A stretch of 64,000 nt of DNA, from assembly GCA_003344405.1 (NCBI GenBank), contig NOWV01000083.1, positions 170,119 through 234,118 of the forward strand, given 5' to 3'. Position numbers and translations under genes: made by a program. Origin of the DNA: Trichoplax sp. H2. Lineage: Eukaryota. Positions 29,693-51,355 of the stretch are shown here, one piece after another (the stretch's first letter is position 1; every line of letters starts with the position of its first letter). The notes below the pieces were generated by a model. It did not search any database, was not told the origin of the DNA, and saw nothing but the letters and a program-made list of their open reading frames with translations.

Positions 29693-30464
29693 TAGAATTG
29701 TATTTGTATAGAATATTCAGAGTATCTTCTTTTATCTTACAGTGCAACGAACACTGAAAATCCTCTGTAAATTTTCTTATATACTATAATTATACTAAGT
29801 TATTAATTCTAAATAGCGCTCAAATAGTCCGTCTATCCGTAATAATTTTACTTAAAATGTAACGGTATATATATATGTCATATACAAACTATAGATTGTG
29901 ACACGAAACTCTAATGAGAATCGTTACAAGTTATAAGCTGTATTATTTCATGAGTAAAGTGTTTTAATATTATTCTGTACAGTAAGTAGCAATCGCATAT
30001 GTAAATTGTACAGTATGCTTTAGAATTTGTTTGATATACAGTACTATACTTCTTTCTGAATATGCTATGCACTCTGTGCAGCATATGGCACAAGGAATAA
30101 ATAACTCCTTGTATTGCTATAGTCTACAATTATGTTACTGTACATTTCTTTTTAATATTCTACTATTATACAGTTTATATAATTTTTCTGCATATGTGTT
30201 AATATGCTATTTAAAGCGACTGTTCATAAATTCTTGAACATTAAATTTTGACGCAATAAATTAAAATTTTTTTAATGCACACCACTATTTTCATTAGATC
30301 TTATTTATCGCATGAGGTATAGTATGATGTAAAGTAAAAAAAGGACATAAAACTATAGATATTTCTCTCTCTCATCTACGGATAAAATCTTAGAACTCAC
30401 TAGATATTGCAAAAGTAAAAAAAATTAGTAAAAATTTTTCCCAATAATTTAAGTTCACAGACTC

Positions 30465-30615
30465 ACTGTACTGTACAATACAGTACAGTAAGCTACAACG
30501 AACAATAGGATTGTATGGAGCACTGCGTATGATGCAAGTAACGTGCTGTACTGTACACTGTACAGTACAGAAAAGTAGTGTCTTGTACTGTACTGTACAG
30601 TATGTAATTGAAAAA
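30465..30615. repeat. (TACTG)n/(CAGTA)n palindromic microsatellite flanking the 3' side of the tRNA gene.
   Basis: ctgtactgtacaatacagtacagtaagc...gtactgtacactgtacagtacag...tactgtactgtacagtatg. Confidence 0.85.
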
Positions 30616-30625: not shown

Positions 30626-30633
30626 TTTATGAC

Positions 30634-30706
30634 TGGTCCGCATGGGGCTCGAACCCACGACCTTCGCGTTATCAGCACGACGCTCTGCCGACTGAGCTAA
30701 CGGACC
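30634..30706 (-). tRNA. tRNA-Ile(GAU): Nuclear tRNA-Ile with a GAT anticodon. It is 73 nt and has no intron.
   Basis: The minus-strand sequence is GGTCCGTTAGCTCAGTCGGCAGAGCGTCGTGCTGATAACGCGAAGGTCGTGGGTTCGAGCCCCATGCGGACCA. The fold is a cloverleaf with a 7-bp acceptor stem, a D stem GCTC/GAGC, an anticodon stem TCGTG/CGCGA with loop CTGATAA (GAT at positions 34-36), and a T stem GTGGG/CCCAT with loop TTCGAGC. The body closely matches eukaryotic tRNA-Ile(AAT) apart from A34 to G. Confidence 0.9.
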
Positions 30707-30819
30707 ACTCCGACAATGTACATTCTACAATACTATTAAAAACAAGATGTAGCGCTCAAACCTCACAAATTTCACCGGGATCGTAAAGACACGATTCATT
30801 CAATGAGTCACAGTATCGT

Positions 30820-30965
30820 ACTGTAACTGTAAAACATTTAGCAACACTTAATATTTTTACGTATTACATCATAATGTACAGTATAGTACCGTGCAGTACT
30901 ATACTGTAGTGTGCTGTACTGTACAGTATGGACCGTGACATACTGTACAATACAGTACTGTATAT
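30820..30965. repeat. (TACTG)n/(CAGTA)n palindromic microsatellite 5' of the tRNA gene, between the tRNA and the p62 promoter.
   Basis: gtactgtaactg...gtacagtatagtaccgtgcagtactatactgtagtgtgctgtactgtacagtatg...tactgtacaatacagtactgtat. Confidence 0.85.
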
Positions 30966-31040
30966 ATTTATTTATAAACATTAGTGTACTGTATAATATG
31001 GACGGTTTGTATTATATGCTGTATAATAACTTCTATATTT

Positions 31041-31062
31041 GCTGACTGTAATTGATTCAGCA
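31041..31062. promoter_or_regulatory. Inverted-repeat motif GCTGACTGTAATTGATTCAGCA, which contains Maf/ARE-like half-sites (TGCTGAC ... TCAGCA). This is copy 1 of 2 upstream of p62.
   Basis: The motif lies about 300 bp upstream of the p62 ATG. Copy 2 is at 31153-31173. Confidence 0.3.
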
Positions 31063-31152: not shown

Positions 31153-31173
31153 GCTGACTGTCGTTGATTCAGC
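31153..31173. promoter_or_regulatory. Inverted-repeat motif GCTGACTGTCGTTGATTCAGC, copy 2 of 2.
   Basis: It is nearly identical to copy 1 over 21 bp and lies 112 bp downstream of it, about 190 bp upstream of the p62 ATG. Confidence 0.3.
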
Positions 31174-31343
31174 GAAATCTCCACTGTCCAGAACTTTCTA
31201 GAATATCGGGCGAAGTGCTTATATACTGAACTCTCGGCGCTGACATTTTACACTTACGATTTTACTCCGTTTCCTGTTTGGTTTCTGGAAAGACTTTCAT
31301 TCATCAAATTTAAGCTTCTCAAGTATCCCCGTGTTCATCCGCA

Positions 31344-31494
31344 ATGTCTCTTATCGTTAAAGCTTATAGTGACGACGAAATCCGTCGATTCGCATTGGAC
31401 CAGAACGTAACAACTAGTTACAACTATCTTTATCAAAAGATTGGCACTCTTTTTCCAAATTTACTAAGAGATTCCTATGTACTAAAGTGGTGTG
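31344..31494 (+). CDS. SQSTM1: SQSTM1/p62-like autophagy receptor, exon 1 (start codon and first half of the PB1 domain).
   Basis: MSLIVKAYSDDEIRRFALDQNVTTSYNYLYQKIGTLFPNLLRDSYVLKWC matches human p62 [25 protein letters not shown]...RVAALFPALRPGGFQAHY. The donor is G|GTAAGC. Confidence 0.8.
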
Positions 31495-31968
31495 GTAAGC
31501 ACTTATAGCGTATTTAGCCTGATTAAGCATAGCTTTACAATATTTTTAATCATTCGATTAATCAAACTCAGGATATGAAATTTAAAATTTTTGCTACTTC
31601 ATGTATTGTATTGTGCTACATGCTCTGCGTATACCTTTACGCTCTTCATTGATACGGAACCGATAGTTGAAAATTGAAAATGATGTTAAGAATTTTTCTT
31701 GACAAGGATACAGTCCTTAATCCTTCACAAATTTAGGTTCTAGACACAGTAAAGGTTGCTTGACTATCTTATCTCACTTTGTGTGGACTGTACTGTAGTT
31801 ACAAAATATATCCGTTTAAAAGAGTTCTAATGTAAAAGCAACATCTACTTTGCTATGCTGCATCGTGCAGTAATTGGCTCTTAAGGACCATATACATTGT
31901 ATAGGTGATAATCACTTCCATCGGTCACTTATCGTAATTTCGTTTCAAAATCGTATTTACAATTGCAG

Positions 31969-32064
31969 ATACTGATGGCGACCTTATCACTTTTTCGTCT
32001 GATGATGAATTGATTGATGCTCTAAGTAACAGGAATGATGAAATCTTCCGCGTATACATCAAAG
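31969..32064 (+). CDS. SQSTM1: p62-like exon 2 (PB1 OPCA motif).
   Basis: (D)TDGDLITFSSDDELIDALSNRNDEIFRVYIK matches human [33 protein letters not shown]. The acceptor is ttgcag| and the donor is AAAG|GTAAAC. Confidence 0.85.
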
Positions 32065-32310
32065 GTAAACCTAAGTGTGACACTTCTTGTTTTATAGTAA
32101 TTATATGATAAGTCATAGACACAATGGATGGAAATTTCGGATATGTTAGTCTGGTCCGAAATTCCTTCGTCATTGTCAGTAAACGCTGAAGGCACTTGGC
32201 TTATTTATTATCTTATACAAGTGATTAAAGATCGGCCGTAACAGTAACGATTCAGCGGTTATAAATCTTTTTAAAATTAATTAATATCATATTAAATTTA
32301 ATTTATATAG

Positions 32311-32999
32311 ACAGGCCGAAAGCTCCTTTCCCTCAAGCAGAATATCCACCTCATTGCAAGGCTTGGTGGTGGGGATACCCTGGTCAGAAACCACGCTGTG
32401 GTGGAAGGCCGGAAGGGTCTTGTAGATGGCGTAATGGCTCTCGTAGATGGCAATCATGGATGGAGGAAGCCCAACGTTGGAAAGATCACAAAGAACAGAA
32501 TTCGTCATTAAATGAAAACACTAACGAATCTTCTGAGAATGAAAATTCTGGAAACGTTTTCAATGCGTTTTGTCCTCAACAAATCAACCCCGAATTTATT
32601 AACTCTTTTGCTGCTAATATGCTAAGATCATTTGGCGTTGATCTGTCAGGATTTTGTCACACATCAAACGAGAGTAAGCCGGATCAACAAAATAGAGAAA
32701 GTGATAAGGGTTGTGACAGAAAGGACGAAGAGACGAATTCTAAATTAGCCGATGGTGCTTGCGCAAGCGCTACAACTACTGAATCTTCTGCAAATTCTAA
32801 ACCATCACAGCAAATCAATCAAGATCATAATCCTGATATAAATGAGAACATCCAACAAGCCATAACTCAAATGGAAGCCATGGGATTCGACAATCAAGGA
32901 GGATGGCTTACTCGATTACTTGAGGCTAAAAACGGTAATATAAGCCGAGCATTGGAAGCTATTTATCCCAACAGATCTAAAGATTCGGGTCTTCAATAA
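32311..32999 (+). CDS. SQSTM1: p62-like terminal exon, comprising a Trp/Gly/Pro-rich segment, a low-complexity acidic/Ser-rich linker and a C-terminal UBA domain.
   Basis: The acceptor is atttatatag|. The product runs ...[36 protein letters not shown]... to ...[32 protein letters not shown]. This matches the human p62 UBA domain [32 protein letters not shown]. The W-rich part resembles the human post-ZZ segment [17 protein letters not shown]. Confidence 0.85.
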
Positions 33000-40839: not shown

Positions 40840-41366
40840 CTATGAAAAGTAAACATAATTCTTAGTTGAAATCAGGCCTTTAATAATTAATTTAATTACG
40901 GCTTTTCATTTTAAGATACTAGGACGACGCCTAGGACTTTGTATCAGGTTAATGACAAACTAAATGCAATGCATCAATAAATAAGTTGCTACATATTACC
41001 TTTGTGATAGAAATCGATCCATTCTTTAATACCTATGAAGTTCTCATGAGATAACCCTTTAATTTCATCATTTAGACCTAAAATAATTATATAATTTAAA
41101 TATAAGAAAAAACAAATACTATTTTTACCCGCATTCTAGATTAATCTGGTACAGCACTGCATTTCCTTTGAATTGTAGCCAATACAATATCGACATTTAG
41201 CCAACTTAGCCGTAGATCGTGATAATATATCGCACTGTTAGCTGGTATTGAGTGTTTATTGATGAAATAATTACGATTATTACTCTACTAAATATAATTA
41301 ATAAATAGTAAGGTATTCATACTGTTATGACTGCGATAGGAGATGGAATAGGTTTATGAGTTTTAC

Positions 41367-41853
41367 CTTTCTCACTAAAATCTCCAGTTACGAAAGCTCT
41401 TGTGCCATCACGACCGGAAAAAAAATTATATCCACCACCTTTACCGTAATGTTCCTTTCCTTTGGTTACATCAAATACTTGGCCCAAAACAGCTAAATAG
41501 ATTGGCTTCTGTGGATCATCACCGTTATATTGTTTTAGATCAGAAGCTGTAAATATCTGACCATCGGGCGCAATGACATTGCTGAGATCTGTACTAGATC
41601 CAGAACCAGTTCCGACAGCCGGTCGTTTAGATTCGTCTTTATAATTATTTTGATAGCTTTCGGCTGTATTCGCTAGTAAATCAACATCTTGTTTATAAGC
41701 GAATACACCTGCAGCAATCGCTGCTGCTAAGATAAAGATAGGAACTAATTTTGATCCTTTGGAATTACTTTCTTGGTTAGTTTCTTCTGGTTTCTCTATC
41801 TTATCAGTTTTGGAGTCATCTGATTTGGCTGCTTTTCGTCTAGTTACAGCCAT
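41367..41853 (-). CDS. CYB5D2: Neuferricin (CYB5D2) exon 1. It encodes an N-terminal TM/signal-anchor and a cytochrome b5-like heme/steroid-binding (MAPR) domain.
   Basis: MAVTRRKAA...LVPIFILAAAIAAGVFAY...FTASDLKQYNGDDPQKPIYLAVLGQVFDVTKGKEHYGKGGGYNFFSGRDGTRAFVTGDFSEK matches human [63 protein letters not shown]. The donor is G|GTAAAA. Confidence 0.85.
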
Positions 41854-42110: not shown

Positions 42111-42427
42111 TTACAGTACGCCCATAGGCCACAGTCCAATGGTACAGTTTATGGACTACTAAAGTTTACAGTACTGCAACAGCAACCAGAAGAGCCAGAA
42201 AGGACTACGTAGATTACACTTGCGCAGATAATTTCATTTAGCGCTTTAGACTTATTAAACAAGGAGTGAGTTGTGGTGCTGACCATTTTTTGTTCGTTTA
42301 CACTGCATTGTACAGCTACACAAACCTTTCTTTTGTTCTCATTTGGGTTCTTTTCGTTCATGTTTTATTTATATTGCAGTTTTCCACTGCTTTTAAAACT
42401 GATATCGTAAGAAGAAATTCCAAGATC

Positions 42428-42595
42428 ATGGCACTAACAGAGCTACAGCATGAATTGCTCACTGCGTTGCTCGACAGTGGTGTCAGTAAAGCAACGTTGA
42501 TACAGGTTCTGACTATGCCAGAGCATTCGAATAGCATCTCACGGGATTATTCATATATTGGAAATGGTGATGTTGCCTTTGGGACCTTTCATCAA
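42428..42595 (+). CDS. HNF1: HNF1 homeobox gene, exon 1 (start codon and dimerization domain).
   Basis: MALTELQHELLTALLDSGVSKATLIQVL matches HNF1A/B [30 protein letters not shown]. The donor is inferred as CAA|GTTGGT (weak, phase 0), because the downstream acceptor is phase 0. Confidence 0.7.
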
Positions 42596-44044
42596 GTTGG
42601 TTAATAATTGTAATTATATATGTATAACATATACAATATATTATAAATAATTATTCGTTTCGCAAATTAGCATTGAACCATACTGACCTATTATTTACTT
42701 GCGTTTTTTTAAATTTTCATGCGCTTAAGTGCTGGTCTTGCTGTATTACATGATACATAAGGTGCACTATAGTACTACACTACGTATAATTAATTAATAC
42801 AACATCACTATAGAAATGATCATGATCACATTTCACAGCCGTCAACGACACAGTAGAAATATTCGTGTGGTATATATTTGTTTTCACGACTATATTAGTT
42901 GATAACATACAAAGTATATACAGTAGTACTGGTATCATTTATTTAATATGCTACTATGGATTCCATTTTTACTTCCAGTCAATATTTATGGCTAGTCTAC
43001 TTGATCTTATTACAGTACTGTAACTATAAACAGCACATCGGCTCGGCGGGAAAGTGTTTTACATGGTTGTAATACGGATAAAATCCATAGTAAAGGAACG
43101 GGGTCGATATATTGGTTACTAATATCAATATTAGTAGGGTCAAGGCAGAATTGTGCGATAATGCATTTGAATGTGATTGCTAGCTCTCGAAGCTGCAAAG
43201 GAATACTTCATCTATTTCAATATACTGTAAAGTACAGCACGGACAGTATAACACAGAAATACCAATCCAAGCAGAGAAGTCGAACACAGCCAATGTACGT
43301 ACATACTGTACAATAGTGTGCAATACTTAACCGTAGGCTGCTGCTTGTGTCAGGTAACGAGTATTAATCAGTGGCTGCACATTTTGAAGAGCGCGCTGGA
43401 ATCGTTTCAACGTGTTTTAAATAGTTCGTAACCCATATAGTAATCCCTACAACGTTTATTGCATTTATATTCCTAATAACTCACGCAGTATTTTAAAAAT
43501 TTATCAATACATAATACTAGATCAGTCTATTAAATATCTTTCAAGTTCTTCAAATAAAATTAGAGTCAGTTCAACATATATTTATATACAAAATTGAATG
43601 CGTCAACAGCTGTGAAATGTCTCTAGTATAGGGTCGTAAACGCTTGGCACATGGTAATATATAAACGTGCACAATCGTAATACGAAACAAAAGCGTAGTA
43701 TAGGGCGGTAGCAACCCTTGCATAGGAGATCCGCCTTATCCGCAATATGCAATGGCAGATAGTGGCAAAAGCGAACAAAATCGTAAGGAGTACCGGTACT
43801 ACGAGACGACTGTGAGTCTATAGTACTGTTTATGCAGGAGACTGGTACATACTGTACAGCACGCTGTAGGGTGTATCGCTATCTACAGATTTCTTGGCCG
43901 AGTGATCAGTAATACCTATGCCCCCAACTCTTGAAACCAAGAGATATGTAAATAATTATAATCATCTGTATCTTTCCGCTAAAAGCTGTCCCTTGCGGTT
44001 TAAAATAAAGATGGTATGCAAATCGTTAATTTGCGATACACCCT

Positions 44045-46749: not shown

Positions 46750-46875
46750 GTAAGTTACTATTACACTTTACTTTTTGATATTCTCTCATTTTGGCTTCTA
46801 TTTCTATTCATATAGTTTAGTTTTGTATATATCTGTATGGTAATGAATTGTCTATCTTTATAAAATCGTTAATAG

Positions 46876-47211
46876 ACGAAAGCGATATAGAAGATGATAC
46901 TACAGTAAACTTAACTATAGATGATCTACCGAGTAGCCCTCCTTCCCCCAAGCGACAACGCCGTAGTCGATTTAAATGGGGTTCAGCTAGCAAACGTATT
47001 TTATATGATTCCTATGCTAACAATACAAATCCTTCAAAGGAGGAACGTGATATGTTAGTTGATGCTTGCAATCATGCTGAGTGTGTTCAACGCGGCTTGC
47101 TGCCAAATCATGAGAGTGCTTTAGGTTCTAGCTTGGTTACTGAAGTTCGGGTATACAATTGGTTTGCCAACCGCCGCAAGGAGGATACTTTCAAGATAAA
47201 ATATCGTAATA
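46876..47211 (+). CDS. HNF1: HNF1 exon 4 (atypical homeodomain).
   Basis: [81 protein letters not shown] matches HNF1 [78 protein letters not shown]. The acceptor is gttaatag| and the donor is A|GTAAGT. Confidence 0.9.
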
Positions 47212-47323
47212 GTAAGTATGAAGAATATAATAATAATTCTCCAAACCATACTTTCAAATAGAAATACTAGCGAACATGATTTATTTGACGTTACTAAATA
47301 TTTTACTTTGTGTGATTAATTAG

Positions 47324-51007: not shown

Positions 51008-51355
51008 TTATTTATAAATACGGTAGTTGTTTACACTAACTGTAGTTTCTGAGCTTTCTTCTAATTGCCGATCGCTTAAGCTTTTCTGCAAAGCATATTG
51101 CAATAGCATATCTTCCTCATCAGCTCCGAAGTTATTGCTTTCTCTTTGCAGTACTTTAGAGTAACTGCTCGGAATGTCAAAGCAAGAATCATCAATTAAA
51201 TAGTTCTTTTGCTTAACGTCATCGGTAGTGTCTAGCTTAGCTTCCAACGGAGATAGTCCTTGGACGGCCTCGTTTTCGCCGTTCAGGTTCGCGAAAGTTA
51301 TGCGCGCATTAAGGATATGATACAGAGGGATTTCTGTTTTAAATATCAATAACAT
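51008..51355 (-). CDS. ANKRD13: ANKRD13-family exon-containing segment (conserved C-terminal core and first UIM).
   Basis: TEIPLYHILNARITFANLNG matches ANKRD13A EIPLFHVLNARITFGNVNG. It also has the UIM ADEEDMLLQYALQKSLSD. The 3' boundary is not resolved; a candidate donor is ACA|GTTAGT. Confidence 0.7.
   Translation of the reverse strand: MLLIFKTEIPLYHILNARITFANLNGENEAVQGLSPLEAKLDTTDDVKQKNYLIDDSCFDIPSSYSKVLQRESNNFGADEEDMLLQYALQKSLSDRQLEESSETTVSVNNYRIYK

Follow-up and report, generated by a model that had tools for sequence, protein, structure and literature searches.

What is left of p62/SQSTM1 when two of its canonical parts are missing is the question raised by a locus of the placozoan Trichoplax sp. 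H2, for p62 is a much-studied hub of selective autophagy and signalling whose ZZ zinc finger and LC3-interacting region (LIR) are usually counted as core. The locus lies within 64,000 nucleotides of contig NOWV01000083.1 (assembly GCA_003344405.1, positions 170,119 to 234,118 of the forward strand), which we call the window throughout and which is placozoan DNA with a G+C content of 33%; a first-pass annotation, made from the letters alone, had described there a p62-like receptor devoid of a ZZ finger. We hold with considerable confidence that the locus is the placozoan p62/SQSTM1 ortholog, that its ZZ finger was deleted in the placozoan stem lineage, and that a scaffold of PB1 domain, linker elements and UBA domain was kept, this being the explanation that best accounts for all the observations jointly.

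Splicing of three plus-strand exons across two GT-AG introns (Table 1) yields a protein of 311 amino acids (aa), the product of the sole model that uses the best splice sites, and this product matches RDD41119.1, "Sequestosome-1 [Trichoplax sp. H2]", at 100% identity, while the T. adhaerens entry XP_002114993.1/B3S4E9, labelled "expressed hypothetical protein", differs from it by one residue and belongs to the same 90% cluster. At E<=1, a Pfam scan of the translated model returned just two domains, PB1 (residues 5-80, E=1.5e-8) and UBA_5 (residues 262-301, E=5.5e-11), ZZ (PF00569) being among those that gave no match; all 12 of the 12 sequence matches in the PDB are sequestosome-1 PB1 or UBA chains, those to the UBA being 1q02, 2rru and 9h1j (E~6e-8 to 2e-7). 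Because the spliced model, its identity to RDD41119.1 and the Pfam and PDB matches agree, the coordinates, peptides, three-exon model and 246-nt intron of the first-pass annotation are correct. The Trichoplax H2 protein has thus already been deposited and named Sequestosome-1, and its ZZ-less architecture is a variant for which our search of the literature found no earlier description, either in placozoans or in Ciona; on an NBR1 or other ZZ-containing paralog in Trichoplax, the literature offers general statements only (PMC3357945, PMC9582228).

The two terminal domains look conventional. As read from the sequence, PB1 is of type AB, with a basic face formed by K6 and R14/R15 and an acidic one formed by D51/D53/D55 and SSDDEL; exon 2 encodes the OPCA motif DTDGDLITFSSDDEL together with the end of the domain (FRVYIK). 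The type-AB PB1 with its OPCA motif and the canonical UBA were therefore rightly recognized from the start, and the basic lysine reported as "K7" exists as well, although its number is K6 and it is the equivalent of human K7. AlphaFold2 (AF2) models both domains with confidence (predicted local distance difference test, pLDDT, ~90), the UBA being predicted as a three-helix bundle. Between them, aa 166-195 are the counterpart of the pan-p62 motif [EY]L.N[VI]G..VA..L.P.GIDVD; BLASTP pairs this segment with EEYLKNVGSAVSDFLKPFGIDVD of P0134, a tunicate-like transcript, and AF2 predicts a helix at residues 176-188. The ...NVG..VA..L.P.GIDVD motif recurs in most of the p62 linkers that we looked at, and to our knowledge no function has been assigned to this pan-metazoan element.

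No trace of a ZZ finger could be recovered from the window. The search with tblastn, using five p62 ZZ domains against the whole 64 kb, gave noise only (best E ~0.7), and a p62-specific ZZ hidden Markov model (HMM) built from 144 homologs reached at best -1.7 bits on the six-frame translations, whereas the same model scored 87.6 bits on Haliotis genomic sequence as a positive control. Intron 2 has no ZZ coding potential by either search, and the long open reading frames (ORFs) scanned elsewhere in the window contain nothing related to p62. At the peptide level, with all HMMER filters off, the ZZ HMM found no match in the interdomain peptide of Trichoplax H2 or of a second placozoan, placoC, and gave -3.8 bits in a third, placoB, which is no better than shuffled sequences; the ligand pattern CxxC-x(n)-CxxC-x(n)-CxxC-x(n)-HxxH does not occur, only three cysteines being found in aa 94-121.

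This absence extends to other placozoans. Two comparison contigs, L001 from an ENA metagenome and L004 from Logan, which we take for placozoan on the strength of their resemblance to the Trichoplax gene, carry the same three exons (151, 96 and 635-650 nt) with the same splice phases and encode PB1 and UBA_5 with no ZZ, the best six-frame score in L004 being -0.4 bits. Identity to the window is 81-85% over exons 1-2 and 43-63% over the introns (for exon 1 against intron 1, 83-85% versus only 43-48% at the nucleotide level), and synonymous divergence (dS) exceeds 1 between Trichoplax and each of the other two. The ratio of nonsynonymous to synonymous divergence (dN/dS) is 0.04 in PB1, 0.04-0.09 in the UBA and 0.14-0.18 in the block that follows PB1, the latter estimated over 22 gapless codons. 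The gene is under purifying selection, and its ZZ-less state is old within Placozoa because both contigs share the ZZ-less three-exon gene at dS >1.

Against this background it is highly improbable that a ZZ finger is still encoded by a missed or alternatively spliced exon, or that the model is an artefact of annotation or assembly. Such artefacts probably do exist, as exemplified by the ZZ-less fish entry Merluccius P0011, but in the present case none of the frames of the window or of the two other placozoan contigs yields a ZZ signal in spite of a strong control, the introns are short and poorly conserved, and three independent assemblies and two independent annotations concur, one of them labelled "expressed". 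We have therefore rejected a hidden ZZ exon, including one within 31495-32310, where the first-pass annotation had allowed that it might lie, and its central claim of a p62 without a ZZ finger is borne out. Scarcely credible, too, is the notion that the gene encodes some other PB1-UBA protein, such as a truncated derivative of NBR1, even though two canonical p62 features, ZZ and LIR, are missing from it. NBR1 (PB1-ZZ-coiled coil-FW-LIR-UBA) shares the selective-autophagy receptor lineage as well as PB1 and UBA at its termini, but the placozoan protein lacks the FW domain, the coiled coil and the ZZ, retains the basic PB1 face that metazoan NBR1 has lost, and ends in a UBA that fits the p62-specific UBA_5 family. 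The Pfam scan gave no FW match (N_BRCA1_IG, PF16158) at E<=1, and the Trp-rich block spans only about 40 aa and is disordered in the AF2 model; the PB1 matches in the PDB are sequestosome-1 chains exclusively; the pan-p62 mid-linker motif is present; the named top matches that were looked up among the 847 homologs (E<1e-3) are all sequestosome-1 or ref(2)P; and two intron positions with their phases are common to mollusc and fish SQSTM1.

The latter point is apparent from the exact SQSTM1 exon structures that we reconstructed for the mollusc Haliotis rubra (L003) and the fish Enoplosus armatus (L005). Both have in common with the placozoan gene a phase-1 intron in the codon of the first OPCA Asp, a 96-nt exon 2 and a phase-1 intron after "(Y/F)IK", so that the boundaries of exons 1 and 2 coincide; in each of the two species a single exon (221 or 293 nt, phase 1->0) then carries the whole ZZ, and a basic/Trp motif stands at the start of the one after it (PFMVPPHCHQWM / PFMVPPHCHQWMNNF in Haliotis, WFPRGKWMKRMRHCMW in Enoplosus). 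The p62 proteins of Haliotis and of the sponge Ephydatia muelleri (PB1+ZZ+UBA_5) resemble the placozoan one in PB1, mid-linker motif and UBA, and have post-ZZ segments of related appearance (PPHCHQWMNNF and ASWWGSGCGGGGGRRRC, respectively), but differ from it in an intact ZZ (Pfam E 1e-12 to 7e-14), encoded in Haliotis by an exon of its own. Since both the sponge p62 and the NBR1 family, which is parental to p62, have a ZZ (PMC9582228), the finger is ancestral and was hence deleted in Placozoa, a lineage-specific domain loss. The same source has p62 originate in a duplication of NBR1 early in metazoan history and notes that yeast Atg19, within this family, has also lost its ZZ (PMC9582228). 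In the placozoan stem lineage, a deletion would have removed the ZZ sequence, whose place had been behind the conserved phase-1 intron that follows "YIK" and ahead of the basic/Trp region, and the downstream introns would have disappeared as well, leaving a single 3' exon to encode everything beyond PB1.

How unusual this is can be judged from the homologs, among which 144 of the best 150 cluster representatives (out of 847 homologs) match a ZZ regular expression. The full-length homologs without a ZZ are those of the placozoans, of Ciona savignyi and of C. intestinalis (all four isoforms listed), together with P0134 and with P0068, an unplaced metagenomic protein. Loss of the ZZ is thus rare but convergent, having also taken place in a bilaterian (chordate) lineage independently of placozoans, because Ciona and P0134 are likewise ZZ-less. 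The expectation that a p62 of this kind would be unusual is accordingly right as to rarity and wrong as to uniqueness, and its framing among bilaterian orthologs does not apply, the animal being a placozoan. The C. savignyi (H2YT48), C. intestinalis (XP_018668857/XP_026691570-72) and P0134 proteins resemble the placozoan one in combining PB1 and UBA_5 with no ZZ by Pfam over 317-386 aa; P0134 and C. savignyi also have an AW(W)G...C...GRP/RC block past PB1, and C. intestinalis shares the want of a LIR core. They differ in that their loss is independent, in that C. savignyi (MEWTFV) and P0134 (GEWTVV) keep a canonical LIR, and in an identity of only 27-35%. Within the ascidian ZZ-less set (P0018, P0047, P0162-P0164 and P0134), C. 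intestinalis isoforms X1-X4 thus lack the LIR core as well, a case of convergent p62 erosion.

In Trichoplax, PB1 is followed by a Cys/Trp/Arg block (aa 83-121) that occupies the slot taken in other p62 genes by the post-ZZ basic/Trp motif. Its identity among the three placozoans amounts to 59%, as opposed to 24-35% in the flanking linkers. The Trp-rich segment singled out by the first-pass annotation is conserved in related species only in part: of its 36 residues the first ~24 are kept in the other placozoans, whereas aa 124-136, with two of its tryptophans, are an insertion confined to Trichoplax. Since AF2 assigns residues 98-136 a pLDDT below 50, with no predicted fold, the block does not look like a folded domain and would most likely be a short linear interaction element or a "sticker". 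Look-alikes occur both behind an intact ZZ (Haliotis PPHCHQWM, HCTAWGGGRCGW in the barnacle Pollicipes and the sponge segment given above) and in ZZ-less proteins (SAWWGNKKCGRGRP in P0134, GCPAWGAGKRHGRHPRC in C. savignyi). The human post-ZZ region, to which the block had been likened and which had been called poorly characterised, is not entirely so, because a patch there (R183/W184/L185/R186/K187/K189) has been mapped as the binding site of IkBa, a client (PMC9947424).

Whether the block is an inherited module is a more delicate matter. It is possible, though we lean against it, that we are dealing with a lineage-specific, disordered linker of biased composition (G/R/P/W/C-rich) and with no module inherited independently of the ZZ. 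The best match of a block HMM to real homologs (8.2 bits, Haliotis) equals the best to reversed sequences (8.2 bits), and fivefold shuffled sequences reach 7.2 bits; AWWG and [AS]W{1,3}G are no commoner than in shuffled linkers (4-7/115 versus 3-5 expected); C. intestinalis p62 has nothing similar; the Cys-Cys spacing differs between placozoans; and AF2 confidence is low. A mere compositional bias fits poorly, however, with the degree of conservation and the purifying selection within Placozoa, with the collinearity of the block and the start of the mollusc and fish post-ZZ exon, and with the location of the best pairwise and HMM matches (in Haliotis, barnacle and sponge) 20-60 aa past the ZZ; moreover, a second ZZ-less lineage keeps its version of the block (P0134) in a collinear BLAST alignment, and a basic-Trp motif is enriched after the ZZ (18/115 versus 3.5 expected), by a regular expression that was written post hoc. 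Unlikely indeed is a third view, by which the block is not a post-ZZ region at all but a ZZ finger degenerated in situ that retains 3/8 zinc ligands. MAFFT does place C98, C112 and C120 in invariant ZZ Cys columns, C98 lies ~15 aa past PB1 as the first ZZ Cys does elsewhere, and the C98-C112 spacing of Trichoplax H2 equals that of human C128-C142; yet the ZZ HMM detects nothing above shuffled sequences, the Cys spacing is unlike among the three placozoans, and C.AW(W)G blocks stand downstream of an intact ZZ in barnacle and sponge, so that a ZZ relic was rejected. In sum, it is plausible from position, exon structure and recurrence, if unproven, that the block is a conserved module independent of the ZZ, and it resembles the human post-ZZ patch in position and composition, a likeness that falls short of statistically demonstrable homology and that had been put forward too readily.

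Several considerations weigh against the reading that we favour, a p62 ortholog that lost its ZZ in the placozoan stem lineage. The bilaterian ZZ exon is asymmetric in phase (1->0; 221/293 nt), such that its clean removal would shift the frame, and for this reason the event cannot have been a clean exon drop. By the block HMM, homology of the block outside Placozoa is not significant, and Smith-Waterman pairwise scores exceed those of all 30 shuffles in only 15/158 comparisons, with ~5 expected. Expression of the gene rests on deposited annotations and comparative conservation, and the transcription factors acting at its promoter elements are deduced from consensus only. As for possible partners, an FW profile derived from the NBR1 sequences of human and Arabidopsis and from human ILRUN retrieved only fragments of <200 aa and no Trichoplax entry, too little to count for or against a Trichoplax NBR1 or another PB1 partner. 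Lastly, the LIR absence described below is one of motif only, and non-canonical ATG8-binding elements are possible.

Outside PB1, a [W/F/Y]xx[L/I/V] core is lacking from all three placozoan p62 proteins; a LIR core is found <=160 aa upstream of the UBA in ~117/128 full-length homologs, usually in the form acidic-W-[TM]-x-[LIV]. A Keap1-interacting region (KIR) resembling STGE could not be read from the Trichoplax sequence either. Compared with human and vertebrate p62 (PB1-ZZ-TB-LIR-KIR-UBA), the placozoan protein has the same type-AB PB1 with basic residues equivalent to K7/R21/R22 and an acidic OPCA cluster, the same UBA with its MGF loop and GGWLTRLL, the mid-linker motif, a basic/Trp-containing stretch past the PB1/ZZ region and the first two intron positions and phases, but it lacks ZZ, LIR core and KIR, is much shorter at 311 aa and is encoded by a gene that has no intron beyond the ZZ position. 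The residues equivalent to human S403 and S407 are Ala and Asp in Trichoplax, as read from the alignment.

Trichoplax p62 is therefore composed of PB1, two short conserved linker elements and UBA. Judging by this domain content, head-to-tail PB1 polymers together with the binding of ubiquitin chains by the UBA would make up a multivalent scaffold able to gather ubiquitinated proteins into clusters, the disordered linker between PB1 and UBA holding the block (aa 83-121) and the helix motif (aa 166-195). The ZZ-dependent functions of mammalian p62, namely the sensing of N-degrons (Nt-Arg), RIP1 binding and vault-RNA binding, would be missing, and coupling to ATG8 would be indirect (e.g., by way of a PB1 partner, NBR1 for instance, should there be one), non-canonical or lacking altogether, since there is no [W/F/Y]xx[L/I/V] core outside PB1. 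One may go further and regard the protein as a naturally minimal p62, independent of ZZ and LIR, whose Cys/Trp/Arg block (C98, C112) confers a regulatory function of its own and in which, if the HSE and ARE/MARE-like palindromes of the promoter are taken into account, a scaffold of ubiquitin condensates that is stress-induced and redox-responsive represents the ancient core; this we consider unlikely. The block may in that event serve in oxidation-driven disulfide cross-linking of PB1 filaments or in Arg/Trp-mediated binding of membranes or RNA. Oxidative cross-linking of vertebrate p62 uses C105/C113, and flies and worms reportedly do without this mechanism (PMC5772351); these two cysteines cannot be aligned with the placozoan protein, whose C98 and C112 are conserved among placozoans in a comparable position.

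Table 1. Features of the p62 gene and its promoter; positions refer to the 64,000-nt window.
Feature	Position	Strand	Description
Distal promoter palindrome GCTGACTGTAATTGATTCAGC	31041..31061	+	Resembles an antioxidant response element/Maf recognition element (ARE/MARE-like); right arm fits the ARE core TGAYnnnGC
Proximal promoter palindrome GCTGACTGTCGTTGATTCAGC	31153..31173	+	Found by the 21-nt palindrome search
Heat-shock element (HSE)-like trimer GAACTTTCTAGAA	31191..31203	+	~150 nt upstream of ATG
TATATA	31220-31225	+	Downstream of the HSE-like trimer
Exon 1	31344..31494	+	ATG at 31344; aa 1-50 and first base of codon D51; donor G/GTAAGC
Intron 1	31495..31968	+	474 nt, phase 1; interrupts the first OPCA Asp codon
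Exon 2	31969..32064	+	96 nt, phase 1 at both ends; aa 51-82 and first base of codon 83
Intron 2	32065..32310	+	246 nt, phase 1; where other p62 genes go on into the ZZ-encoding exon
Exon 3	32311..32999	+	aa 83-311 and stop (TAA ends at 32999); Cys/Trp/Arg block, polar disordered linker, helix motif, UBA
Conserved Cys/Trp/Arg block	32311..32426	+	aa 83-121; core EYPP[HF]C..WW.G....RCGGRPEG in three placozoans
Trichoplax-only 13-aa insertion	32433..32471	+	aa 124-136; two Trp of the first-pass segment; missing from both other placozoans in the three-way alignment
Mid-linker helix motif	32559..32648	+	aa 166-195; 67-70% identity among placozoans
p62-type UBA	32832..32966	+	aa 257-301; MGF loop, GGWLTRLL; Pfam UBA_5

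Elements of the promoter are also conserved. The 21-nt palindrome GCTGACTGTnnnTGATTCAGC has two matches in the 64 kb, both upstream of p62, where 0 are expected, and it is present in three copies upstream of p62 in each of L001 (847-1191) and L004 (360-716). Exact matches to the HSE GAAnnTTCnnGAA number three in the window as against 0.46 expected, the promoter trimer being one of them, and GAATATTC[TG]AGAA is found twice in each of the two other contigs at the same relative position: there, both proximal palindromes have a GAAnnTTCnnGAA HSE ~17 nt after them, and in the window only the proximal copy does. In each of the three contigs a TATA box comes after the element that is most proximal. 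Palindrome, HSE trimer and TATA box, in that succession, thus appear to form a composite unit that recurs in the promoter and has been conserved across three placozoan lineages. Because the promoter contains conserved HSE and ARE/MARE-like palindromes, placozoan p62 is probably stress-inducible, through HSF and possibly through CNC-bZIP/Maf factors, and these motifs suggest that stress-inducible transcription of p62 is ancient. A CNC-bZIP factor is present in placozoans, and Keap1 is not (PMC12285602). A further exact GAAnnTTCnnGAA, at 32541-32553 within exon 3 of p62, probably arose by chance among the Asn/Glu-rich codons of the linker.

Just upstream of p62, and in divergent orientation, all three placozoan contigs have a gene for tRNA-Ile(GAU), at 30633-30707 in the window, 638-712 in L001 and 157-231 in L004 (minus strand in each case), so that synteny is conserved. 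Dense, short palindromic repeats of the TACTGTACAGTA type flank this tRNA gene on both sides in the window (30458-30604 and 30870-31006), and similar strings are found in L001 at ~230-255 and in intron 1 at ~1596-1670. The neighbouring long ORFs, at 41317-41853 (minus strand), 42266-42604 (plus strand), 46848-47261 (plus strand) and 51008-51355 (minus strand), encode a cytochrome-b5 domain, an HNF-1 N-terminal-like segment and a homeodomain (probably of an HNF1-type homeobox gene), and an ANKRD13 C-terminal part.

The value of these findings is tempered by the fact that the protein already bears the name Sequestosome-1 in databases, that ascidians share the loss of the ZZ and that lineage-specific domain loss is common. 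A natural "minimal p62", maintained by strong purifying selection in placozoans that diverged deeply, nonetheless lets one ask what polymerisation and ubiquitin binding alone suffice for, and it could also be used to probe the roles of the post-PB1/ZZ patch and of the mid-linker helix as well as the route to autophagosomes. Should the placozoan protein indeed embody a minimal p62, the coupling to ATG8 and to N-degrons would be dispensable additions to an ancient core.

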